A DNA stretch of 40,256 nt from a virus, in IMG/VR virus record IMGVR_UViG_3300028438_000001. One strand, 5' to 3'. Numbering within the stretch: position 1 is the stretch's first letter; every line of letters starts with the position of its first letter. The notes beneath the pieces were generated by a model. It was given only the letters and a program-made list of their open reading frames with translations. It ran no database searches and had not been told where the DNA came from. Shown here piece after piece: positions 21,208 to 32,907 of this stretch. Position numbers and translations under genes: made by a program.

Positions 21208-21656
21208 GCCGCAAACCTCAAAACTTGATCGACAACATCGTCTAGATCCTCCCGCGTCCACGTGGTCAAAACCTTCTGCAAAATCACATTGATCACCGCC
21301 GAATACAGCCGCTCGAACTCGTCCTCCTCCATGTTCGCGAACGCTATGCTTTTCGCCTTCAGCCGCACCGAACCGCCCAGACTAGCCACAACGTCGTAAT
21401 ACCCGGCCAGGATCGTGACCTCCTCGCGGAACCGATCCATGTTTTTTTCGACCGCCCGGCCCTTGTATTCGGCGCTTGGTGTCCAGTAGTCGAACCCGAC
21501 GTTGAGCAGGGCAAAAAATTTCCGGTGAAATTTCGGATTGCGCGGCTTGGTGACCTTGGCCTGCACGATCTCGCCCACGCCAAACCGCTTGGCCTCTTCC
21601 GCGTCCAGCGGGTAGGCCGGCATGAAAGAACCGTTCGGGCGCTTGACGAGGTACAT
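21204..21656 (-). CDS. DUF1367-like phage protein
   Basis: KPRNPKFHRKFFALL...TILAGYY...RLKAKSIAFANMEEDEFERLY matches my recollection of DUF1367. ATG 21656 shares one nt with the dnaB stop. Confidence 0.6.
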   Translation of the reverse strand: MYLVKRPNGSFMPAYPLDAEEAKRFGVGEIVQAKVTKPRNPKFHRKFFALLNVGFDYWTPSAEYKGRAVEKNMDRFREEVTILAGYYDVVASLGGSVRLKAKSIAFANMEEDEFERLYSAVINVILQKVLTTWTREDLDDVVDQVLRFAA

Positions 21657-22957
21657 CAGTCGCCACACCTGTCACCGCCGGTTTCCGCCATCCGATCGCC
21701 CCACATCATTTTTTCCGCAACGTACGACGCCCGGACCTTGCCAATCGGCCCATGCCGGTTTTTCTCAATCAGGATTTCGGCCTCCGTGGGATCGGCATTC
21801 TCGTCGTACACATGTTCGCGGTAGAGGAACGTAACGATATCGGCCTCTTGCTCGATCTCGCCGGAATCCCGGAGGTCCGAGAGCACCGGACGCTTGTCGG
21901 CACGGCGTTCGCATTCGCGCGATAGTTGCGCCAGGCAAACCACCGGAATATCGAGCTCGCGGGCAATCGTTTTCATGGCCGCCGCCATTTTCCCGACCTC
22001 TCGCGTACGGGAAACGTCCGCCTCGTCAGGCGTCAGCCGCGTCAGGAAATCGACAAACAGCACGTCCAGTCCGCCCGAGAGTTGCCAAGCCTTGGCCTGC
22101 ATCATGATGTCGCTCGGAGTGCACGCCGGTTTGTCGTAGAGCATGATCGGGAGGGCCTGCAAGCGCCCTGCTCCCTCGGCCAGTTCTCGGAAATCCCTGT
22201 CCGTGAACTTCCCGGTCCGCAACACATTCGCCGGCAAATCAGCCGCCAGCGACAACGCGCGTAGGCCCAACTGAACGGACGGCATTTCCGCCGAGATAAT
22301 CCCAGCGCGCCGCCCGCGTAGCGCGGCTCGGTAGGCCGACGTCAGCATCAGCGCGGTTTTACCCATAGCAGGGCGAGCCGCGACAATGATCAGATCGGAT
22401 TTGTGATACCCGCCCATGACGCGATCCAGCCCGCCAATCCCGGTAGGCACTCCGACGATCCCGCCCCGCTTGGCGGCCTCATGCACAGCTTCGGCCTGAT
22501 CCAACGCCGCCGCCATCCAACCCGTGGCGTCTACCGCATAGCCCGCGCCGTCGCGGTCCAGCTCGGCAATCCGAGCAATCAACCGCGCCGCGATCTCGTC
22601 CGCCGTGCCAGTCCTTGCGTGCAAGTCCTCGGCCGATTTCGCCAGCAACTCGGCCAGGGCCCGGCTCCGCGCCTCGGATTTCAGCAACCCGCAGTAGTGC
22701 GCCAGGTTCGATACGCTGCCAGCCGTGTCCTTCCACAACGACGCCACGATTGAAACCGCGTCCTGCCGTCCCAGGCGTTCCGCCACGTTGAACACGTCCG
22801 GTTCCTGTCCAGCCGCCACCGCCGCCCGCATGGACTGGAAAATCAGGCCGCAAGTCGGGTTCTGGAAATGATCGGCACGGATGTCGACGCGAACAATTTG
22901 CTCCGGATGGCGTAGCAGAATGCCGAGGATGATTTGTTCGATGTCGAATGCGTTCAT
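21656..22957 (-). CDS. dnaB: Replicative DNA helicase (DnaB family)
   Basis: 433 aa. GVPTGIGGLDRVMGG...LIIVAARPAMGKTAL is the Walker A motif, followed by the RecA-like C-terminal motifs. Confidence 0.9.
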   Translation of the reverse strand: MNAFDIEQIILGILLRHPEQIVRVDIRADHFQNPTCGLIFQSMRAAVAAGQEPDVFNVAERLGRQDAVSIVASLWKDTAGSVSNLAHYCGLLKSEARSRALAELLAKSAEDLHARTGTADEIAARLIARIAELDRDGAGYAVDATGWMAAALDQAEAVHEAAKRGGIVGVPTGIGGLDRVMGGYHKSDLIIVAARPAMGKTALMLTSAYRAALRGRRAGIISAEMPSVQLGLRALSLAADLPANVLRTGKFTDRDFRELAEGAGRLQALPIMLYDKPACTPSDIMMQAKAWQLSGGLDVLFVDFLTRLTPDEADVSRTREVGKMAAAMKTIARELDIPVVCLAQLSRECERRADKRPVLSDLRDSGEIEQEADIVTFLYREHVYDENADPTEAEILIEKNRHGPIGKVRASYVAEKMMWGDRMAETGGDRCGD

Positions 22958-23760
22958 GTCAGAAAATCACGTGCTCGGGTTTTTGGTTCCGTCCGCGCCA
23001 TCGATGCATTGCTGATTGCGGCAACTCTAGGCGCTCTGTCCTGGGCTCTGCTCAACCAACCCGTCAGGAATCTGGCGTAGTTGGATTTTCGGTTCTTCGG
23101 GTTTGCAATCAACCAAGCTGCTGCCCTTGCAAGCTCGGCATCCAGACTGAGGGCTGGATAGGCTCTCTGCCAAGCATCCCGTAGTCCGGGTGTTATGTGC
23201 AGAAATTGAATCCCGTCGAACTCGATTTTTTTTGTTTCGGCAGAAGAAACGAACGAAGTGAGTTTCTTCTCTTGGTTTCTTCTTGGTTTCTTCTTGGTTT
23301 CTTCTTTGCCCGTTACCAATTCGGTAACCGTTAAGTTACCGATTCGGTAACCGTTTAGTTCCGATTCGGTAACCGTTTCTGATTCGGTAACCGTTTCTGA
23401 TTCGGTAACCGTTTCTGATTCGGTAACCGTTTCATTGGCATCTAACGCGATTTTCAACGCCTCTGTGATTTCTGTAGGAACCGTGATTTTGTACTGAGTG
23501 GGCGACGATCTGCCGCCGCTTCCGCACTTTTCTAGCCATCCGAGCCTGACTAATTCAGTGGTCGCCGTGGAAATCTTGCAGAGAGGCAATCCGCACCGTA
23601 CCGCCAAAGTTTCTCTTTTCGGGAAAATCACATCGGTTCCGCGTGAACGGAACGATAGCAGGGCTATCAGAACGCGAATATGTGTCAGAGATAGCCGCTT
23701 ATCGAATGCTATTTCGACCGGTACAAAAGAAAACGGGAGACGATCGGCTGTCACGCTCAA
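22954..23760 (-). CDS. Replication initiator (lambda O-like, winged-helix N-terminus) containing the origin iterons
   Basis: ORF track 22954..23778. There is no ATG near the N-terminus. TTG 23760 gives a TTGA overlap with the upstream stop. The internal ETVTES x4 is encoded by the iterons. Confidence 0.65.
   Translation of the reverse strand: MSVTADRLPFSFVPVEIAFDKRLSLTHIRVLIALLSFRSRGTDVIFPKRETLAVRCGLPLCKISTATTELVRLGWLEKCGSGGRSSPTQYKITVPTEITEALKIALDANETVTESETVTESETVTESETVTESELNGYRIGNLTVTELVTGKEETKKKPRRNQEKKLTSFVSSAETKKIEFDGIQFLHITPGLRDAWQRAYPALSLDAELARAAAWLIANPKNRKSNYARFLTGWLSRAQDRAPRVAAISNASMARTEPKTRARDFLT
23264..23306. repeat. Three 11-bp repeats (tttcttcttgg) next to the iterons (possible unwinding element)
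   Basis: Read directly: tttcttctcttggtttcttcttggtttcttcttggtttcttcttt. Confidence 0.5.
23319..23431. repeat. Six iterons ATTCGGTAACCGTT (putative ori)
   Basis: Copies start at 23319, 23342, 23364, 23382, 23400 and 23418. The last four are spaced 18 bp apart. All lie within the initiator gene. Confidence 0.75.
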
Positions 23761-23909
23761 ATCCCCAACTGCTCGCAAATCACCCGCATAGCCGCCTCAT
23801 ACTCAGCTGGCGTAGCGGCTGGGTGAGCGTCAATCCATTCCCGTTTCAGGATTTCGTAAAGAGCCCAAAAATCGGAATCCTGCCGCATGTTTTCCGCTGG
23901 TGTACTCAT
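23757..23909 (-). CDS. Small hypothetical protein (50 aa)
   Basis: ATG 23909 in an ATGA overlap. MSTPAENMRQDSDFWALYEILKREW... Confidence 0.5.
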   Translation of the reverse strand: MSTPAENMRQDSDFWALYEILKREWIDAHPAATPAEYEAAMRVICEQLGI

Positions 23910-24930: not shown

Positions 24931-25143
24931 TTAGGCGGCCTCGTCTGACGGCCATAGATCGGGGCGCAGATCGGAGCGCCGAACCTTGTTTGACAGGGCT
25001 TTCTCGATCTCAATTGCACGTTCGGCGGAAACACCATTCCGCAGCCAATAAGAGATATGCTGCTGCTTGACGTTCCCGCCAAGAATTTGAGCCAACTTCA
25101 CTTGGGAGCCAGCTATGGAAATTGCTTTAAGTAGTCCGTTCAT
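24931..25143 (-). CDS. cro: Cro-like repressor (YdaS/Cro HTH family)
   Basis: 70 aa. GSQVKLAQILGGNVKQQHISYWLRNG.VSAERAIEIEKAL......DLRPDLW. Divergent from the cI-like gene. Confidence 0.65.
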   Translation of the reverse strand: MNGLLKAISIAGSQVKLAQILGGNVKQQHISYWLRNGVSAERAIEIEKALSNKVRRSDLRPDLWPSDEAA

Positions 25144-25151
25144 GGGTATAG

Positions 25152-25180
25152 ACCTTACAAATTTAATTTGTCTTTGTCAA
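25152..25180 (-). promoter_or_regulatory. Leftward early promoter (TTGACA-N17-TAAGGT) with an operator in the spacer
   Basis: -35 is the reverse complement of 25175-25180 and -10 is the reverse complement of 25152-25157. This leaves only a few nt of leader before ATG 25143. Confidence 0.5.
25157..25171. promoter_or_regulatory. Operator ACAAATT-T-AATTTGT
   Basis: 7-bp inverted repeat, read directly. Confidence 0.6.
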
Positions 25181-25208
25181 CAAGTTAAACCTGTTGGCAA
25201 GGTAACAA

Positions 25209-25219
25209 ACAAAATTTGT
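25209..25219. promoter_or_regulatory. Short operator-like palindrome ACAAA-A-TTTGT just before the cI-like start
   Basis: Read directly. Confidence 0.4.
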
Positions 25220-25222
25220 ACT

Positions 25223-25618
25223 ATGACCTACATGAAATTAGGCGATCGAATCAGAAAATGCCGCGAGCAAAAAGACATGTCCCAAGAGGACTTAGGTAAA
25301 GCTATCGGGCAAACACAGCAGACGATTGCGGCCATTGAAGATGGAACTATCGAGAACCCTCGCCGTTTGAAGAAGATTGCCGAAGCTCTTGGCGTAACAG
25401 AGGCTTATCTAAGGTTTGGTGAATCGCCTTCGCGGGAAGATGAAGAGCGATTCACCGAAGCGCAGTTCCTGGTAGAGCAATTCCTTATCTCGCATCGAAA
25501 ATCGTTGACGTTAAGAGATAAGTTCTTGGTTGTCTCGCGGCTCTATCTGCACATGAAGCGTTGCAACCAGGTAACGGCATCGGACGCAGATGTGAAACGC
25601 GCGTTCATGGGCCTGTAA
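25223..25618 (+). CDS. cI-like repressor (XRE-family HTH, no obvious S24 peptidase domain)
   Basis: KLGDRIRKCREQKDMSQEDLGKAIGQTQQTIAAIEDGTIENPRRLKKIAEALGV is a canonical XRE HTH. The start is ATG 25223 or 25232, and no SD is visible. Confidence 0.8.
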   Translation: MTYMKLGDRIRKCREQKDMSQEDLGKAIGQTQQTIAAIEDGTIENPRRLKKIAEALGVTEAYLRFGESPSREDEERFTEAQFLVEQFLISHRKSLTLRDKFLVVSRLYLHMKRCNQVTASDADVKRAFMGL

Positions 25619-25631
25619 TCGGGAGGTCGTT

Positions 25632-25901
25632 ATGTCGGAAAATGGCGACAAGGTTTTTAGCGAGGCATTACAAAACTGCGCCTGCGTAGTCTTCTATACT
25701 CAAATCGGCAACAACATTCGTAGCGGGGGTCTTATGGGCAGCTTTGATGCCGTAATCAGAAGCATTCTTGAGCAATACCCGCCGTCACAGGCGGAATCCG
25801 ATATCATCGTTAAATTCAAGGCCGATTCCATTGATCTGACTATCGAAAAGAAGTCTCATAAAAGCGGCGGCGATATCATCGAAAACGAAGAGCAACCATG
25901 A
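25632..25901 (+). CDS. Hypothetical protein in the repressor operon (moron)
   Basis: ORF track, 89 aa. GGGAGG RBS. AT-richer segment. Confidence 0.6.
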   Translation: MSENGDKVFSEALQNCACVVFYTQIGNNIRSGGLMGSFDAVIRSILEQYPPSQAESDIIVKFKADSIDLTIEKKSHKSGGDIIENEEQP

Positions 25902-25911
25902 GGTGTTGAGC

Positions 25912-26181
25912 ATGAAAAAGATTGTTGCGTTTGCATTACTCTGGTTTTGCGTTTCAGCTTCTGCCGATCAGTACGTGGACGGCTATGTCCGGCAAGATGG
26001 AACATATGTAGCGCCACACTTCCGGAGCGAACCAAATCAGTACCGGTTCGACAATTATAGCGGCCAAGGGAATTACAACCCCTACACTGGCCAGCAAGGC
26101 TATCAACGGCACGAGTATTCAAACCCGTCAATTTACAGCTACCCTCAAGCGCAGCCCAGACGGCGCAGCGCGTGGGATTGA
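25912..26181 (+). CDS. Secreted Tyr/Gln/Asn/Pro-rich small protein
   Basis: ATG 25912 after GAGG. Signal peptide MKKIVAFALLWFCVSASA. The mature part contains DGTYVAPHFRS...NPYTGQQG. Confidence 0.65.
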   Translation: MKKIVAFALLWFCVSASADQYVDGYVRQDGTYVAPHFRSEPNQYRFDNYSGQGNYNPYTGQQGYQRHEYSNPSIYSYPQAQPRRRSAWD

Positions 26182-26202
26182 CTTCATCTCTTGCGACAAT
26201 GT

Positions 26203-26228
26203 AAAGCCCGGCGTGTCCGGGCTTTTTT
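26203..26228 (+). terminator. Intrinsic terminator ending the repressor operon
   Basis: aaagcccgg-cgtgt-ccgggcttt followed by ttt. Confidence 0.75.
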
Positions 26229-26254
26229 ACGCTCAAAAAATTTTTTCGGCGAAC

Positions 26255-26297
26255 ACAAATTAAACTTGTTGACAGACACAAATTTAGTTTGTACTCT
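26255..26297 (+). promoter_or_regulatory. Rightward early promoter TTGACA-N17-TACTCT with two operators
   Basis: -35 at 26269-26274 and -10 at 26292-26297. Operators ACAAATTAAACTTGT (26255-26269) and ACAAATTTAGTTTGT (26278-26292) match the 25157 operator. Confidence 0.6.
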
Positions 26298-26335
26298 TTC
26301 ACCCAAGCCGCCCACAGCGGTGTTTTACCTCCCTA

Positions 26336-26360
26336 CCGCGCCCTTTCGAGCGCGGTTTTT
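26336..26360 (+). terminator. Terminator-like hairpin in the 5' leader of the rightward operon (attenuator?)
   Basis: ccgcgc-cctttcga-gcgcgg followed by ttttt, about 40 nt downstream of the -10. Confidence 0.4.
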
Positions 26361-26384
26361 CGAAATGAACAACTGGAGAAAAAA

Positions 26385-26717
26385 ATGAACCTAGACGAAC
26401 TGACCATCGGACAAGCAAAGCAGCTGGCTGCCATGTTTGGCGCGCAAGCGCCGCAATCGACCGCTTACGAGGTCGGCAAATGCTATTTCATCCGCACGGC
26501 CACCTATCACGTGGTCGGGCGGCTCGTCCGGATCACCGATAGCGATCTCGTGCTAGAAGACGCATCGTGGGTTGCGGATTCGGGCCGGTTCCATAACGCA
26601 TTACGAGACGGAGAGCTAGGCGAGGTGGAGCCATTCGTCAGGCCCGTCATTGTCAGCAGGGGCGGATTGATCGACGGAACCGAATGGATTCACCCGCTGC
26701 CGGACAAGCAGAAATGA
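26385..26717 (+). CDS. Conserved-looking hypothetical phage protein (110 aa)
   Basis: ATG 26385 after GGAGA plus an A-run. ...CYFIRTATYHVVGRLVRITDSDLVLEDASWVADSGRFHNAL... Confidence 0.65.
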   Translation: MNLDELTIGQAKQLAAMFGAQAPQSTAYEVGKCYFIRTATYHVVGRLVRITDSDLVLEDASWVADSGRFHNALRDGELGEVEPFVRPVIVSRGGLIDGTEWIHPLPDKQK

Positions 26718-26872
26718 ATGCGGTAATTAAAGGCATGAGCAGGAGCATGAGCAGGAGCATGAGCAGGAGCAGGAGCGGGAGCAGGAGCGGGAGCCTGAGC
26801 TGGAGCTTGAGCAGGAGCTGGAGCGGGAGCAGGTGCTTGAGCCGGAGCTGGAGCCGGAGCTGGAGTTTATAG
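26714..26872 (+). CDS. Ser-alternating (X-S)n repeat peptide 1 (52 aa)
   Basis: ATG 26714 in an ATGA overlap with the upstream stop. MNAVIKG then MSRSMSRSMSRSRSGSRSGSLSWSLSRSWSGSRCLSRSWSRSWSL. Coding status is uncertain because of low complexity. Confidence 0.45.
   Translation: MNAVIKGMSRSMSRSMSRSRSGSRSGSLSWSLSRSWSGSRCLSRSWSRSWSL
26735..26866. repeat. 22 tandem hexamers NNGAGC
   Basis: Parsed unit by unit from the sequence. Confidence 0.9.
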
Positions 26873-26874
26873 AA

Positions 26875-27111
26875 ATGAATGCGGCAATTAAGAGCAGAAC
26901 CGGGAGCTGGAGCTTGAGCAGGAGCAGGAGCCTGAGCGGGAGCTGGAGCTGGAGCTGGAGCGGGACCTGGAGCGGGAGCATGAGCAGGAGCATGAGCTGG
27001 AGCTGGACCTGGAGCGGGACCTGGAGCGGGATCAGGAGCGGGAGCCTGAGCTGGAGCTTGAGCAGGAGCTGGAGCGGGAGCAGGAGCAGGAGCAGGAGCA
27101 GGTTCTTATAG
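26875..27111 (+). CDS. Ser-alternating (X-S)n repeat peptide 2 (78 aa)
   Basis: ATG 26875 lies 2 nt after the first ORF's stop. It has the same head (MNAAIK) and the same TTATAG end as peptide 1, in a different absolute frame. Confidence 0.45.
   Translation: MNAAIKSRTGSWSLSRSRSLSGSWSWSWSGTWSGSMSRSMSWSWTWSGTWSGIRSGSLSWSLSRSWSGSRSRSRSRFL
26890..27105. repeat. 36 tandem hexamers NNGAGC
   Basis: Parsed unit by unit. A few units have ACC/ATC/TTC instead of AGC. Confidence 0.9.
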
Positions 27112-27151
27112 ATAACCCGCCAATGGCGGTAACAACCACGGAAACACTGAC

Positions 27152-27451
27152 ATGAGCGAATTATTTTTGGAACTTGGCAGGGCGCTGAACCCGGCAATCA
27201 ACGACCAACACCCGCGCGGAACCGTTCAGGACAAAATTGCCTTCCTGAACGATTCGGACAGCTGGAGGGACATTTTTACGAAGGCCGGACTCGATCCGGA
27301 CATGGAATTCGAGTGGCTGGCCGCCGAGGTTTACAGCGGTCACCGCTCGGACGCGCAACGCCGGGTGAACCGGGCGCTTGAGCTTGCCTACAACGCGGCT
27401 TGCGACCGGCGTGAACGAGACATGTTTGAGAGTATGGAGAACGCGGCATGA
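27152..27451 (+). CDS. Hypothetical protein (99 aa)
   Basis: ORF track. Confidence 0.6.
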   Translation: MSELFLELGRALNPAINDQHPRGTVQDKIAFLNDSDSWRDIFTKAGLDPDMEFEWLAAEVYSGHRSDAQRRVNRALELAYNAACDRRERDMFESMENAA

Positions 27452-27678
27452 GCTTAGACAAGCCGTTCAGCAACGGGAAATGGTCGATTACTGTGCATAC
27501 GGTTGGAGAGTTAATAGACGAGCTCTCCAGATTGCCGAGAGATTTACCAGTAGATCAAGAGTATGAGGGGAGAGGGTCTGATTTAGTTGTAATCAATCGC
27601 AATTCGGATGCTCATATCCGGCTTGACGAGGTCGGTTTTTGGGAAGACCAATCCGAGAGCGTGGAGGATGAGGAATAA
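27448..27678 (+). CDS. Hypothetical acidic protein (76 aa)
   Basis: ORF track. ATGA overlap. Confidence 0.6.
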   Translation: MSLDKPFSNGKWSITVHTVGELIDELSRLPRDLPVDQEYEGRGSDLVVINRNSDAHIRLDEVGFWEDQSESVEDEE

Positions 27679-27837
27679 GAGCCCGCCCGGAGCTTATCCG
27701 GGCAACTACCGGAGAGCGCTTTCGGCCAGCAGTGAAATGAGCCGCGCCGCTTGGATACAGAGAGCGCTCCCCGATGGTTGTAGCCATCTTGTTAGTACTT
27801 CAACTCGCCATGGATGGCTCTTTTACTGGAGACGAAC

Positions 27838-28017
27838 ATGAACCAAACCGTTAACCAAGTCCGCTCGCTGGAACGCGCGCGTAGCCGCCAACGAGAAGTC
27901 AAAAAAGAGCTGCAGAAAAACTGGGCTCGCGTAATCGATAGGACGCCTGACGATTTCGACGAGGCGGAATGCAACATGCCGCGCCCGATCCCGCACGCAT
28001 GGCAGCACATGGAATGA
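27838..28017 (+). CDS. Hypothetical protein (59 aa)
   Basis: ATG 27838 after GGAGA. In frame with ORF 27814..28017. Confidence 0.55.
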   Translation: MNQTVNQVRSLERARSRQREVKKELQKNWARVIDRTPDDFDEAECNMPRPIPHAWQHME

Positions 28018-28130
28018 GGCAGTTCGCCGGTTTTCTGGCGGAACTCGCCGGGTGGATGCTGTTCTTTGTCGCGCTGGCGGCGGTGGTGTGCGGGGCGGTG
28101 TGGTCGGCTTTGAAAGATGAGGAGTTTTAA
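28014..28130 (+). CDS. Single-TM micro-protein (38 aa)
   Basis: ATGA overlap. MRQFAGFLAELAGWMLFFVALAAVVCGAVWSALKDEEF. Confidence 0.4.
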   Translation: MRQFAGFLAELAGWMLFFVALAAVVCGAVWSALKDEEF

Positions 28131-28355
28131 GTGGAAAAGATCAGTTTACTGATATTGATAGCCGTAATCTTTACAGCCGGTTTTGGCTGGGGTCAGTGGT
28201 ATGCGGAACGATCTATCCGACAGGAAAGACTCCGGCTTACAAGCGGTCGGTTTGAAATATCCATGCCAATGAACCAAGACGACGCTGCTGCAATGCTAAC
28301 GCTGTTGAAAGATTTGATAGACGAAGTTAAGCACAGAAAAGATGAGCCGCATTGA
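28131..28355 (+). CDS. Membrane-anchored hypothetical protein (74 aa, GTG start)
   Basis: ORF track. GAGGAG 7 nt upstream. N-terminal TM segment. Confidence 0.55.
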   Translation: MEKISLLILIAVIFTAGFGWGQWYAERSIRQERLRLTSGRFEISMPMNQDDAAAMLTLLKDLIDEVKHRKDEPH

Positions 28356-28371
28356 AAGATGAGGAGTGGTA

Positions 28372-28584
28372 ATGATGTTAGTAACAGAACGCGACGCAAC
28401 AATGAAATGGTGCCCGTTTGGTAGTCGGGTATGGGGTGAGTCAACCATAACTGGTTCCTGCTGCGGTCATAATCGAGACTATCACGACAAACCGACAACC
28501 TTGTGCCTTGGTTCTCGGTGCATGGCGTGGAACGAAAAGACTATTGACGGAGTGGTTAAGGGATATTGCGGGCTAACAAGATGA
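28372..28584 (+). CDS. Small Cys-rich phage protein (70 aa)
   Basis: ATG 28372 after GAGGAG. WCPF...CCGH...CLGSRCMAW...GYCGL. Confidence 0.6.
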   Translation: MMLVTERDATMKWCPFGSRVWGESTITGSCCGHNRDYHDKPTTLCLGSRCMAWNEKTIDGVVKGYCGLTR

Positions 28585-28730
28585 GCCGCATTAAAGACGC
28601 GCTGATTATCGATCAGCGGACGGAGGAACCGCCCGAGGACGAGGTGCTATTCGAACCGGGCGGCGAGTGTCCTGAAATGGACGATGAAATTATAGAGGAG
28701 TTTTTCGATGTCGAAACAGTCCCCTTCTGA
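28581..28730 (+). CDS. Possible small acidic protein (49 aa)
   Basis: ATGA overlap. MSRIKDALIIDQRTEEPPEDEVLFEPGGECPEMDDEIIEEFFDVETVPF. Overlaps the next gene by 23 nt. Confidence 0.35.
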   Translation: MSRIKDALIIDQRTEEPPEDEVLFEPGGECPEMDDEIIEEFFDVETVPF

Positions 28731-29391
28731 AAAAACCGGCCTGGCTCTATTGCGCGAGCCGTTCCCGCCGAGTCAAATCTCTAAACTTCCGAAGTTTCGG
28801 AAGGATTCGACAGCTCGGAAAATACGGTGCCCGATATGCCGCGGGTATCACCCGGAAGATGCGGTGCATTTGGATTACGTTGGCCATGCGGCCCTCACCA
28901 ACCGGCTGCTTGATGCCGATCCAGAATGGAATTGGGAACCGCTGGCTGTTGATGAATCCGGACTGCCACGCATGGACCGCTGCGGCGGCATGTGGATCAA
29001 GCTGACCGTATGCGGTGTTACCCGGCTTGGCTATGGCCATGCCGAAGGCAAACAGGGCGGCGACGCGATCAAGGAAACGATCGGCGACGCGCTGCGTAAT
29101 GCCGCAATGCGATTCGGCGCGGCGCTTGATTTGTGGCACAAGGGAGATCTACACGCTGATGACGGCACGGACGAACAGCCTCCGGAGCGGGAAGCGCCAA
29201 AACATGAGCCGTCGTTCGCGCCGCTGAGCGAACAGCAGGTCGTCGAAATCGCGGCTTTGGCCGACGAGGTCGGCGTACCGCTGGATAAAATCCTTGCCTT
29301 CTGCAAGGCGCGAACCTTCGCCGAAATTCCCGCGACGGCTTACCAGAAAATCATCAACAAGCTGGAACAGTCCAGGAAGGCGGCGGCATGA
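28708..29391 (+). CDS. Rad52-family single-strand annealing protein (Sak/DUF1071-like)
   Basis: 227 aa. ..HLDYVGHAALTNRLLDADPEWNWEP...GMWIKLTVCGVTRLGYG...GDALRNAAMRFGAALDLW. Confidence 0.6.
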   Translation: MSKQSPSEKTGLALLREPFPPSQISKLPKFRKDSTARKIRCPICRGYHPEDAVHLDYVGHAALTNRLLDADPEWNWEPLAVDESGLPRMDRCGGMWIKLTVCGVTRLGYGHAEGKQGGDAIKETIGDALRNAAMRFGAALDLWHKGDLHADDGTDEQPPEREAPKHEPSFAPLSEQQVVEIAALADEVGVPLDKILAFCKARTFAEIPATAYQKIINKLEQSRKAAA

Positions 29392-29585
29392 ATTTAACCC
29401 ACACCAAACCCCGTAAACCACGCGCAAGCAAGTTGCCGGATGCGGGCAATGAGAATTTTATAGTGCGCGTTGATGGGAAGCTGTTTAGATGTGATTGCGG
29501 ATGCAACGTCTTTCATAAACCCAAACCTGGACATACATATATCTACGAGTGCAATGAGTGCGGATCTCGATATAAAGGGGCTTAA
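29388..29585 (+). CDS. Zinc-ribbon protein (65 aa)
   Basis: CDCGCN...ECNECG. ATGA overlap. Confidence 0.6.
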   Translation: MNLTHTKPRKPRASKLPDAGNENFIVRVDGKLFRCDCGCNVFHKPKPGHTYIYECNECGSRYKGA

Positions 29586-29586
29586 C

Positions 29587-30075
29587 ATGAAATACCCACC
29601 AACGTTGCGCGAGCTCACAAACCAGCAGCTCGAATTGCTGAACATGGCCGACGTGCCGGTAGACGCATTGCGCGACACGCTCGAAGGGCTGAAAGGCGCG
29701 ATCACGGAAAAAGCCGAGAACATTGTCGCCGTCATCAACCGCCTTGAATCCGACGCCGAGGCATGCCGTGCCGAGGAAAAACGGCTAGCCGAACTCCGCC
29801 GCTCGCGTGAGGCGCATTCGAAGCGGCTGAGGGAATACCTCAAGGTCAACATGGAACGGCTGGGCGTTGAAAAAATCGAGTGCCCGCTGTTCAAGATTTC
29901 GATAAAGGCTAATCCGCCCGCGGTCAGGATCGAGGACGAAAACCTAATCCCGCTCAATTACACGCGGATCCCTGATCCTGAGATCGACAAAGCCGCGATC
30001 AAGTGCGATCTACTCGCCGGGAAAGACGTGCCGGGGGCGGTGCTGGAGAGCGGGACGAGGGTTGAAATTAAATGA
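29587..30075 (+). CDS. Siphovirus Gp157-like protein (recombination-module accessory)
   Basis: ATG 29587. A coiled-coil N-terminal half plus ...FKISIKANPPAVRIEDENLIPLNY fits the Gp157 family pattern. Confidence 0.6.
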   Translation: MKYPPTLRELTNQQLELLNMADVPVDALRDTLEGLKGAITEKAENIVAVINRLESDAEACRAEEKRLAELRRSREAHSKRLREYLKVNMERLGVEKIECPLFKISIKANPPAVRIEDENLIPLNYTRIPDPEIDKAAIKCDLLAGKDVPGAVLESGTRVEIK

Positions 30076-31609: not shown

Positions 31610-31936
31610 CCTGGGTATCTGGGCATAAACAAAAACGATTTCAATGCGACTGTTCGCCCCCTACTGACCGAAATTCCGATGATGGCTCGGGGCATTGGAT
31701 TCGACCGGCTTGAGCTAGACGCCTGGTTCGAGGAATATAAGGCCCGCAACGGGAGACCGCCGCGCACAGAGGAGATGCAACCATGGCAAAGAGAAAAACG
31801 CCAGGGCTCACCTATACGGGCGGGCAATGGGTCATCGATAAAAGAGTCCAGGGATTCGGACGACTTTTTGAGCGCACTGGAATCGGTGACAAGGGGAAGG
31901 AAGCGGAAGCCGTCGCCTATCTCAACCGAAGGCTAG
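31574..31936 (+). CDS. xis: Excisionase / AlpA-like HTH protein
   Basis: RLRDAPGYLGINKNDFNATVRPLLTEIP...GFDRLELDAWFEEY resembles HTH_17-type excisionases. The 3' 154 nt overlaps int. Confidence 0.55.
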   Translation: MILDRFIRLRDAPGYLGINKNDFNATVRPLLTEIPMMARGIGFDRLELDAWFEEYKARNGRPPRTEEMQPWQREKRQGSPIRAGNGSSIKESRDSDDFLSALESVTRGRKRKPSPISTEG

Positions 31937-32907
31937 GCGAAATACGGGACCATCAGGAAAGGGAGAAGAATGGAATCCATACGTTTCGGCAGGCGGCAAC
32001 GCGATATCTCAAGAGCGAGACCAAGCGGAGTTTGGATAGGGATGCGTATTGCCTAAAAGCGGCCGATCCGTTCATCGGGGCACTACAATTGGAGCACGTT
32101 CACATGGGAACGCTTCAGCCGTTCATCGATAGCCGGAGGGACGAGGGAATCAAGTCGTCAACGGTGGTCAGGGAATTGTCAATTATTCGCCGGGTGCTGA
32201 CCCTGGCTGCCCGGCAGTACCGGGACGAACAAGGGCGCCCGTGGCTCAAACAGGCCGTGCCCATGTTTACCATGCCGGATTGGGAAGACGCGGCGCAGGC
32301 TTACCCGCTCAATTGGGAAGAGCAAAAGCGGTTTTTTAGGCTCCTGCCGGATTATTTAGCGGCCATGGCCCTGTTCGGGGTCAACACCGGGCTAAGAGAG
32401 CAAGGGATATGTTGGCTACGGTGGGATTGGGAAGTGAAAGTGCCGGAACTCGGAATCTCGGTATTCATCACGCCAGGCAAGCCGCGGATTTACTCTGACG
32501 GAAAATGGACAGGCGAGAAGAACAAGGAAGACCAGGTTGTCGTTCTAAACCGCGTGGCTCGCTCCGTGGTCGACGGACAGCGCGGCAAGCACCCGGTCTA
32601 CGTGTTCCCGCACCGGGACAAGCGCCTCAATACCATGTATCGAAGCGCCTGGATCACGGCGTGGAGAAAAGCCGGATTGCCGACAGACGAAAGCGTGTGC
32701 CGAGGTCCGCACAACCTCAAGCACACGTTCGGCAGGCGATTATCCGCCGCTGGAGTGCCGCCCGACATTCGAAAAGCGCTGCTCCATCATACAACGGGTG
32801 ACGTTACGTTGCATTACTCGCCGGCCGACATCGGGCGGTTGCTGGAAGCAGCTGAAATGGTCGTGCAGCAAGATCGCGAGTGGACGGTTTTGAGGAGGGT
32901 GAGGTGA
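31783..32907 (+). CDS. int: Tyrosine integrase
   Basis: 374 aa. GLREQGICWLRW, HNLKHTFGRRL and LLHHTTGDVTLHY correspond to the R...HxxR...Y catalytic pattern. Confidence 0.9.
   Translation: MAKRKTPGLTYTGGQWVIDKRVQGFGRLFERTGIGDKGKEAEAVAYLNRRLGEIRDHQEREKNGIHTFRQAATRYLKSETKRSLDRDAYCLKAADPFIGALQLEHVHMGTLQPFIDSRRDEGIKSSTVVRELSIIRRVLTLAARQYRDEQGRPWLKQAVPMFTMPDWEDAAQAYPLNWEEQKRFFRLLPDYLAAMALFGVNTGLREQGICWLRWDWEVKVPELGISVFITPGKPRIYSDGKWTGEKNKEDQVVVLNRVARSVVDGQRGKHPVYVFPHRDKRLNTMYRSAWITAWRKAGLPTDESVCRGPHNLKHTFGRRLSAAGVPPDIRKALLHHTTGDVTLHYSPADIGRLLEAAEMVVQQDREWTVLRRVR

Follow-up and report, generated by a model that had tools for sequence, protein, structure and literature searches.

The Ser-Asp (SD) repeats of the staphylococcal Clf/Sdr adhesins are acidic stalks within large secreted proteins with an LPXTG wall anchor. 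Eukaryotic RNA-binding proteins carry RS/SR and RG/RGG tails, and the Gly-Arg tails of SmD1, SmD3 and LSm4 are bound by Tudor beta-barrels. Indolicidin, tritrpticin and synthetic (RW)n are Trp/Arg-rich cationic antimicrobial peptides. The C9orf72 hexanucleotide repeat yields poly-GR and poly-PR among others, the Arg-rich ones being polycations that bind RNA and low-complexity partners (PMC10637751), and the tandem repeats of Borgs create disordered regions and are reported to arise independently (PMC9879509). Here we describe twin open reading frames (ORFs) in a viral stretch of 40,256 nucleotides (nt), IMG/VR record IMGVR_UViG_3300028438_000001 (the window), in which arrays of NNGAGC hexamers read as (X-Ser)n directly behind a gene for a small protein that we call the partner. 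We judge it likely that both ORFs are real protein-coding genes, tandem microgenes each made of a leader and a dipeptide repeat, in a two-part module with the Sm-like partner. They belong to a large, undescribed family of Ser-X dipeptide-repeat microprotein genes found in phages of many bacterial phyla.

Twin hexamer arrays in the window

The module occupies the following positions.

26385-26717, plus strand: partner gene, 110 residues; predicted N-terminal helix, linker and Sm-like small beta-barrel
26714-26872, plus strand: ORF1, 52 residues; MNAVIKG, (X-Ser)n, then Leu and stop; its ATG overlaps the partner stop
26714-26734, plus strand: ORF1 head MNAVIKG, a short form of the family leader
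26735-26866, plus strand: array 1, 22 hexamers, 20 of them exact NNGAGC
26782-26833, plus strand: 52-nt shared stretch, copy 1, an exact match to 27033-27084
26862-26865, plus strand: GGAG within the last unit of array 1, 9 nt 5' of the ORF2 ATG, as read from the sequence
26875-27111, plus strand: ORF2, 78 residues; MNAAIKS, (X-Ser)n, then Arg-Phe-Leu and stop
26890-27105, plus strand: array 2, 36 hexamers, 30 of them exact NNGAGC
27033-27084, plus strand: 52-nt shared stretch, copy 2, in array 2

In their own frames the two ORFs translate as MNAVIKGMSRSMSRS...WSL* (52 aa) and MNAAIKSRTGSWSLS...RFL* (78 aa). They open with the heads CAGAAATGAATGCGGTAATTAAA (ORF1) and TAGAAATGAATGCGGCAATTAAG (ORF2), and the same TTATAG closes both. 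The start of ORF1 and the stop of the partner gene share an ATGA (26714-26717), the ORF2 ATG (26875) lies 2 nt past the ORF1 stop (26872), and the two ATGs differ in absolute frame (position modulo 3 equal to 2 and 1). A first-pass annotation, made by a model from the letters without database searches, had given these coordinates, unit counts, heads, tails, overlap, 2-nt gap and frame difference, and all of them were confirmed to the base. ORF2 is a tandem duplicate of ORF1 shifted into another absolute frame, and the GGAG in the last unit of array 1 is likely its Shine-Dalgarno sequence.

Chance falls far short of explaining the arrays. Tandem Repeats Finder lists them as one array of period 6 with 60.8 copies (26733-27102), and 50 of the 251 GAGC tetramers in the window fall inside the 403-nt twin region. 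The deviant hexamers of array 1 are AGGTGC and TGGAGT. The variable residue X is drawn essentially from the NGG codon set (W, R, G), and the Met, Leu and Lys found at X are one-step derivatives of NGG codons. Just 3' of ORF2, before the next gene, lies a hairpin, CCGCC-AAT-GGCGG (27117-27129), with no T-run after it on the plus strand; the same 5-bp CCGCC...GGCGG stem, with other loops, also stands 3' of the arrays at three related loci (L001, L093 and L094).

Mis-assembly had been raised as a concern for so repetitive a region. An independent ENA assembly (L199, a 181-kb contig) is identical to the window over the twin region, and this identity, together with a 5.29-Mb Methylocaldum contig that carries the 110-residue protein, argues that the region is no assembly artefact. 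The exact 52-nt identity marks a recent exchange between the twin arrays, and it is where short-read data go astray: Logan contigs L200 and L201 break at this stretch, and contig L202 joins across it, 251 nt shorter and with the two ORFs fused in frame, which could be an assembly collapse or a genuine recombinant. The twin-array structure is real, even though short-read assemblers stumble over it. Writing off hexamer repeats in phage genomes as junk or as noise of the assembly would be a mistake, and it is exactly at such genes that short-read assemblies break.

Conservation of the serine frame and of the partner

The window is one instance of a widespread arrangement. We found 192 relatives of the partner in IMG/VR and examined 91 loci. 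A period-6 array follows the partner gene, a few tens of nt past its stop, in over 80 of the 91, and where the array is missing the contig usually ends there. Metagenome-assembled genomes (MAGs) gave 13 further relatives, nine of them with the array, from at least six phyla; the 13 MAGs are assigned to Rickettsiales, Phycisphaerae, the Fibrobacteres-Chlorobi-Bacteroidetes (FCB) group, Bacteroidetes, Acidobacteriaceae, Solirubrobacterales, Gammaproteobacteria and lineages of the candidate phyla radiation (CPR), and the Solirubrobacterales relatives lie inside contigs of 2.3 and 2.5 Mb. A collection clustered at 90% identity holds 75 unnamed clusters of partner relatives. A profile search of 1.84 billion representatives retrieved 2,090 clusters (at 50% identity) at E <= 0.001, of which 1,563 reached E <= 1e-10. 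Among 50,697 GenBank phage records, a protein search gave two weak partner matches only, one of them in the uncultured Myoviridae sp. ctTUS972, which carries a canonical partner-peptide pair; its peptide is already entered in GenBank (MW202573.1), read in the Ser frame and labelled hypothetical. A DNA search of GenBank phages with window positions 25900-28700 gave no match. When all flanking ORFs were clustered, no conserved neighbour or third gene emerged besides the partner.

Partner and peptide gene are also tightly spaced. In 69 partner-peptide pairs the peptide ATG overlaps the partner stop in 44 and lies within 12 nt of it in all but one of the others. The peptides run from 31 to 117 residues, and a partner gene is followed by one to eight peptide genes, with up to eight tandem units at one locus (L035). 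The closest relatives show how the arrays change: one (L092, partner 96% identical) has at least three peptide units, a second (L093, 84%) has one unit of 28 residues, and six more (L094-L099, 79%) have one 72-residue unit, identical in six samples. In all of them the ATG, the MNA[AV]IK head and a TTATAG or TTATAA tail are kept and array lengths differ by whole hexamers. The first-pass annotation had asked whether an (X-S)n ORF follows homologues of the upstream protein and whether indels come in multiples of 6 with ATG and head retained; the ORF follows almost everywhere, and the indels are of that kind, with head and tail kept and the gene number ranging from one to at least three among these close relatives. 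At one of these loci (L094, 1091-1744) the gene 3' of the array encodes a pentapeptide-repeat protein in place of the DUF6280-like gene of the window. The gene calls listed for these Joint Genome Institute (JGI) metagenome contigs misplace the array at several: in L093 (3356-3466) they take the Glu-X frame from a TTG start, and in L095 and L097-L099 the minus strand; in L092 no gene is called over the arrays.

The reading frame can be identified by comparing 128 non-identical arrays from 81 loci (L002-L091). The constant triplet is a Ser codon in all 128 (dominant codon TCT in 53, TCG in 39, AGC in 24, TCA in 11 and AGT in one). Since AGY and TCN codons are not connected by any single-step change, it is the amino acid itself that is conserved. 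In every other frame and on the other strand the reading shifts with the array type and none keeps its composition; the (Ala-Pro)n of the window's minus strand, for example, becomes Arg-Pro, Asp-X or Thr-X in other array types.

These observations bear on the idea that another frame or strand codes, be it the minus-strand (Ala-Pro)n, the plus-strand (X-Glu)n or a +1 frame reading (Gly-Leu/Arg/Ala/Gln)n. Such frames are mostly open, gene callers have at times chosen them (the Glu frame in L093, the minus strand in L095-L099), and in the +1 frame the hypervariable base would be a silent wobble position for CTN, CGN and GCN. However, the second residue in each of these frames varies with array type, the window's Ala-Pro frame is directly preceded by TAA and has no start codon, and TGA stops interrupt its +1 frame. 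A +1 Gly codon should be free at its third base, yet that base is off the majority in only 2.6% of units. In the Ser frame the stop comes a median of one codon after the last unit; for the other frames the medians are 9 and 12. We give this alternative next to no credence.

The same comparison speaks to a DNA-level role, which the first-pass annotation had offered as an alternative: a binding or decoy array, a recombination hotspot, origin-like iterons or a neutral variable number tandem repeat, with the ORFs accidental. Several frames are indeed open on both strands, copy number differs between relatives, and the array lies upstream of recombination genes. Among relatives, however, the hexamer itself varies (AGC, TCT, TCG, TCA and AGT types) while the Ser reading is kept. 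This lack of conservation in the unit excludes a DNA-binding array, and a neutral repeat would not have preserved the leader, the placing of the ATG at the upstream stop and the stop at the array's end. The window also has iteron-like repeats elsewhere, at 23310-23433, apart from the twin arrays. Conservation is confined to the GG of X and to the reading as Ser-X, so the DNA-level alternatives found no support and we regard them as very improbable.

Codon use within the arrays follows the genome and amino acid composition does not. Across flanks of 0.28 to 0.61 G+C, the third base of the Ser codon tracks the genome (T or A at low G+C, G at high), and the CGG share of Arg codons climbs from 3% to 66% (Spearman 0.58, p 6e-10). 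Over the same range Trp keeps a share of 0.27-0.29 of X, and Arg one of 0.29-0.34. Not one of the 95 arrays with 15 or more units lacks Trp or lacks Arg/Lys, Asp and Glu make up about 1% of X, and identical neighbouring X residues are rarer than in shuffles (670 versus 732 +/- 20), which indicates that the X residues are interspersed.

Ahead of the repeat stands a 12-residue leader, M-N-x-A-[IVL]-[LM]-R-x-G-[FYLH]-[DEN]-x (39 distinct leaders). It varies in the way that coding sequence does, to judge from its codons: Gly9 is invariant but spelled GGT in 13, GGA in 10, GGC in 9 and GGG in 7; Ala4 uses all four GCN codons, Arg7 both AGR and CGN, Leu6 both TTR and CTN; and the entropy by codon position is 0.95, 0.66 and 1.39. 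The window heads MNAVIK and MNAAIK are the short leader form common to its close relatives. Canonical leaders co-occur with a motif in the N-terminal helix of the partner (odds ratio 6.5, p 0.004), an association to which we attach little weight since the patterns were loose and phylogeny was uncorrected.

Selection at the protein level acts on the frame, the leader and the composition of these genes, the genes are obligately linked to the partner, and the module is widely distributed. The central claim of the first-pass annotation, that (Ser-X)n ORFs are translated from their own ATGs, is supported by the linkage, the use of five Ser codons and the conserved heads and tails. It had missed that the partner is an invariant companion, that X is the NGG set and that the head is a shortened form of the 12-residue leader.

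The NGG set is itself a constraint. Of 2,978 units, 82% have TGG, GGG, AGG or CGG at X, and 91% have G as the third base of X. In phages of 35% G+C the third base of X is still about 91% G, whereas the partner gene has G at only 15% of its third positions; in these phages GGG accounts for 96% of Gly at X, and AGG outnumbers AGA 234 to 12. Because the Gly of the leader uses all four codons, general codon usage is not behind this bias. The fractions of units off the majority base at hexamer positions 1 to 6 are 0.026, 0.036, 0.048, 0.523, 0.111 and 0.084, and nearly all within-array variation falls at the one base that switches X among Trp, Arg and Gly. TCC hardly ever serves as the Ser codon (8 of 3,106), and TCC followed by NGG would create the self-complementary CCNGG. 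TGG is the sole Trp codon, and NGG is the sole codon set whose first-base changes give W, R or G and never a stop. Our best idea is that unit duplication combined with first-base change would make NGG self-maintaining; the constraint may instead come from the RNA, if GG is needed there every 6 nt.

The partner, the product and possible roles

An AlphaFold2 model of the partner has a mean predicted local distance difference test (pLDDT) score of 91 and consists of one helix and six strands, with a variable linker. The Sm fold has an N-terminal helix and then a strongly bent sheet of five strands, and Sm/LSm proteins assemble into RNA-binding rings of six or seven. In Foldseek searches of the PDB the best matches are Sm/LSm proteins, as are nearly all of the top 50, at a weak E of 2e-3; template modeling (TM) scores against Sm/LSm are about 0.5 normalized to the query and 0.6-0.79 normalized to the target. 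Small beta-barrels of non-Sm families also resemble the model, and its viral structure matches are uncharacterized or DUF6948 proteins. Pfam, PHROG, NCBIfam and PADLOC gave no match for the partner, Pfam (LSM included) gave none for it or for any of the 36 alignment members, and the partner profile found nothing among PDB sequences at E up to 10. By its model the partner is a small beta-barrel, but judged by sequence it does not qualify as an Sm protein. We also sought natural fusions of partner and repeat; the long matches proved to be N-terminal extensions or tandem barrel duplications, with no fusions. Three partner homologues (P0076, P0087 and P0174) carry tandem barrels in one chain, a hint that the barrel self-associates.

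A second family of small proteins shares the N-terminal helix of the partner (38% identity over 65 residues, E 2e-12) and differs in its C-terminal half. Members of this sister family occur in the cultured Vibrio phage IKEMa6-1 (PP738966.1; L105, 1501-2152) and in a Methyloversatilis MAG; further loci of the module are L106-L185 and L001 (3001-3641). IMG/VR has 209 relatives, some of which, to judge from IMG identifiers only, seem to come from isolate genomes or human-gut samples. Their hexamer arrays, 80 of them distinct, read (Gly-[Ser/Tyr/Asp/Asn/Phe])n behind the head M-[PS]-[KR]-L-N-[NK], and each of the four Gly codons is dominant in some. Both array types occur together at some loci and both have GG every 6 nt. 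The sister module indicates that the phenomenon is broader than the family of the window.

These features invite the view that the functional molecule is the transcript, in which GG every six bases would be bound by the Sm-like partner as a scaffold, sponge or regulatory leader, translation being secondary or serving only in its regulation. In its favour are the third base of X, held at G against genome composition, the GG periodicity in both array types, and a closest partner fold, Sm/LSm, that is an RNA-binding one. It leaves unexplained, however, why the other triplet is always Ser from two unconnected codon families, why Trp and Arg shares stay fixed while synonymous choices drift, why the leader has a coding signature and why a stop directly follows the array in the Ser frame only. 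The array RNA has no folding advantage over shuffles (z 0.19), Rfam 15 covariance models gave no match within 26385-27150 at E up to 1, and the partner is acidic. We consider a transcript-level function improbable. G-quadruplex formation by (GGN4)n was discounted for a general reason, in that the quartets could stack no more than two layers deep, with loops of 4 nt.

If the microgenes are translated, as we think likely, half of the peptide residues are Ser, about 18% Arg and about 14% evenly spread Trp, with a median net charge of +9. Over the 69 pairs the mean charge is +9.1 for the peptides and -3.6 for the mildly acidic partners, a complementarity that we count in favour of a two-part protein module. 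The conserved partner residues are acidic or aromatic (E80, E82, D65, D97, W62 and F69) and, from their chemistry, would suit binding of an Arg/Trp polymer. The first microgene would be translationally coupled to the partner through the ATGA, and the arrays would gain and lose hexamer units while selection holds on to the leader, the frame that reads Ser and the mixture of W and R. An amphipathic beta-strand had been suggested for the product. A single-sequence AlphaFold2 model of ORF2 does contain four beta-strands; at a mean pLDDT of 66 it gives this structure weak support and is equally compatible with disorder. We tentatively propose, at clearly less than even chances, that the product is a cationic, aromatic, multivalent polymer, disordered or beta-prone, that is bound, chaperoned or displayed by the partner and acts on polyanions (RNA, DNA or ribosomes), which it might, for instance, coat or condense. 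The partner might be the chaperone, anchor or nucleator of this polymer.

The main functional rival holds that the peptides are translated and are membrane-active or toxic, as kil- or holin-like products, in superinfection exclusion, or as a toxin with the acidic partner as antidote. The Trp and Arg content resembles that of Trp/Arg antimicrobial peptides, and the AlphaFold2 strands, at low confidence, have a Ser face. The order of an acidic gene and then a basic product, two small genes translationally coupled by ATGA in 44 of 69 pairs, is like that of type II toxin-antitoxin operons. But the peptides have no signal peptide or hydrophobic segment and half of their residues are Ser, and one to eight peptide genes per partner is unlike toxin-antitoxin stoichiometry. 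PADLOC, Pfam and the NCBIfam toxin-antitoxin families gave no match, and the acidic Gly-Tyr-Ser-Asp repeats of the sister family would not be membrane-active in the same way. We hold a toxic or membrane role to be unlikely.

The contribution of condensates to phage development was described as unclear in 2026 (PMC13401047). An extension of the polymer proposal, which we offer as speculation with only a small chance of being right, is that phages carry minimal sticker-and-spacer polymers in two complementary chemistries, each nucleated by its own partner: cationic (Ser-[Arg/Trp/Gly])n here and anionic, Tyr-rich (Gly-[Tyr/Ser/Asp])n in the sister module. Early in infection such polymers might bring about or dissolve condensates, formed either with nucleic acids or with one another. 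NGG would be kept because single-base changes switch Trp, Arg and Gly without stops, which would make the arrays fast-tuning loci.

Several points weigh against our account of the module. An acidic partner is a misfit for a classical RNA-binding Sm protein. The hold on NGG is unexplained by protein-level selection alone and leaves room for an RNA- or DNA-level layer. Four of the 13 MAG homologues of the partner have no array. ORF1 and ORF2 (with any start) and a 156-residue minus-strand ORF are all absent from a collection of 15 billion proteins, so gene callers miss the twin ORFs. Within arrays, synonymous variation is no higher than nonsynonymous, which makes the usual logic of nonsynonymous-to-synonymous rate ratios inapplicable inside the repeat. 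Translation is argued from comparative sequence, and the functional proposal is drawn from composition and genomic context.

That context is a prophage of Methylocaldum gracile / sp. 0917. The 110-residue protein is identical to WP_133719042.1, encoded on a 5.29-Mb NCBI contig of this organism, and the assignment was made through this protein and WP_133719040.1. The neighbouring genes that we could place are these.

21656-22957, minus strand: DnaB, adjoining the HTH_36 gene
22954-23778, minus strand: HTH_36 initiator gene, containing iteron-like repeats
24931-25143, minus strand: Cro/YdaS-like gene
25115-25618, plus strand: HTH_3 regulator
28708-29391, plus strand: single-strand annealing protein, downstream of the DUF6280-like gene
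29470-30075, plus strand: Gam-like Gp157 protein
31783-32907, plus strand: integrase

The HTH_3 regulator is followed on the plus strand by two small genes, a 200-nt gap, the 110-residue gene, the twins and a weakly DUF6280-like gene. The twins lie near the start of a plus-strand operon that runs from the immunity region to recombination and integration genes and that, from gene order, would be the early operon. In lambdoid phages the corresponding part of the genome holds accessory and host-takeover genes. With the immunity region on one side of the twin genes and the recombination genes on the other, their product would act early after induction. Terminator-like hairpins with T-runs stand on the plus strand at 26307-26321, in the 200-nt gap 5' of the partner gene, and at 27618-27635, downstream of the twins and inside the operon; the former suggests that the partner gene opens a transcription unit. 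Within the HTH_36 gene, three copies of the 11-nt repeat TCTTGGTTTCT are followed by about six 18-nt units with the palindrome TTACCGATTCGGTAA (23270-23433). These are probably the replication origin of the prophage, with iterons inside the initiator gene as in lambda.

Relation to known systems

The module is common, with some 2,090 clusters of the partner and IMG/VR loci in the hundreds, and its hosts belong to many phyla, yet it is invisible to current annotation. Pfam, PHROGs, NCBIfam and PADLOC return nothing for the peptides beyond low-complexity noise, and we found no description of the family in the open-access full-text literature on repeats, motifs, Sm-like proteins, dipeptide repeats or phage condensates, in line with the first-pass statement that no such phage gene family is known. 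If our reading is right, the stand-alone dipeptide-repeat microprotein with a dedicated partner is a new class of phage product. It is also an unusually clean natural case in which two constraints on the same bases can be told apart, namely protein-level selection (five Ser codons, a constant Trp share) and the NGG bias. Tractable hosts exist in the cultured methanotroph Methylocaldum, which carries the prophage of the window, and in the cultured Vibrio phage with the sister module.

Peptides that are made on ribosomes and modified after translation (RiPPs) offer a parallel in architecture, a 12-residue leader followed by a repeat in the manner of leader and core; the clustered flanking ORFs hold no conserved modifying-enzyme genes. 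The Trp/Arg antimicrobial peptides are about 13 residues long, are secreted for host defence and have no alternating Ser, whereas the family described here has products of 31-117 residues that lack a signal peptide and are encoded by phages.

The SD repeats of Clf/Sdr are, like the twins, length-variable Ser-X dipeptides from short periodic DNA, and they gave the only similarity in the family libraries (NCBIfam, E down to 4e-4, at no more than 18 bits against cut-offs of 999-2500). Unlike them, the product here is repeat throughout, basic and aromatic, with no signal peptide and no other domain. Borg tandem repeats (PMC9879509) share with the twins near-perfect, fast-evolving repetition in units that are multiples of 3, carriage on a mobile element and a low-complexity protein product; the twins differ in being a single conserved family across phyla, with a leader and a partner, in which the repeat fills the entire gene.

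The C9orf72 GGGGCC repeats (PMC10637751) provide another case of a hexanucleotide repeat read as a dipeptide repeat. There, translation of the expansion is pathological, does not start at AUG, uses several frames and yields homopolymeric products. The twins have an AUG, a conserved leader, one frame, a W/R/G mixture, a defined stop and a dedicated partner. RS and RG tails resemble the twins in alternating Arg with a small residue, in binding multivalently and in their association with small beta-barrels. In those proteins the repeats stand in cis, contain no Trp and are under the control of phosphorylation or methylation, whereas the twins encode microproteins in their own right, about 14% Trp, next to an acidic partner without Sm motifs or a Pfam LSM match. 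The twin ORFs have one trait in common with each of these closest known systems and differ from it in its defining features.

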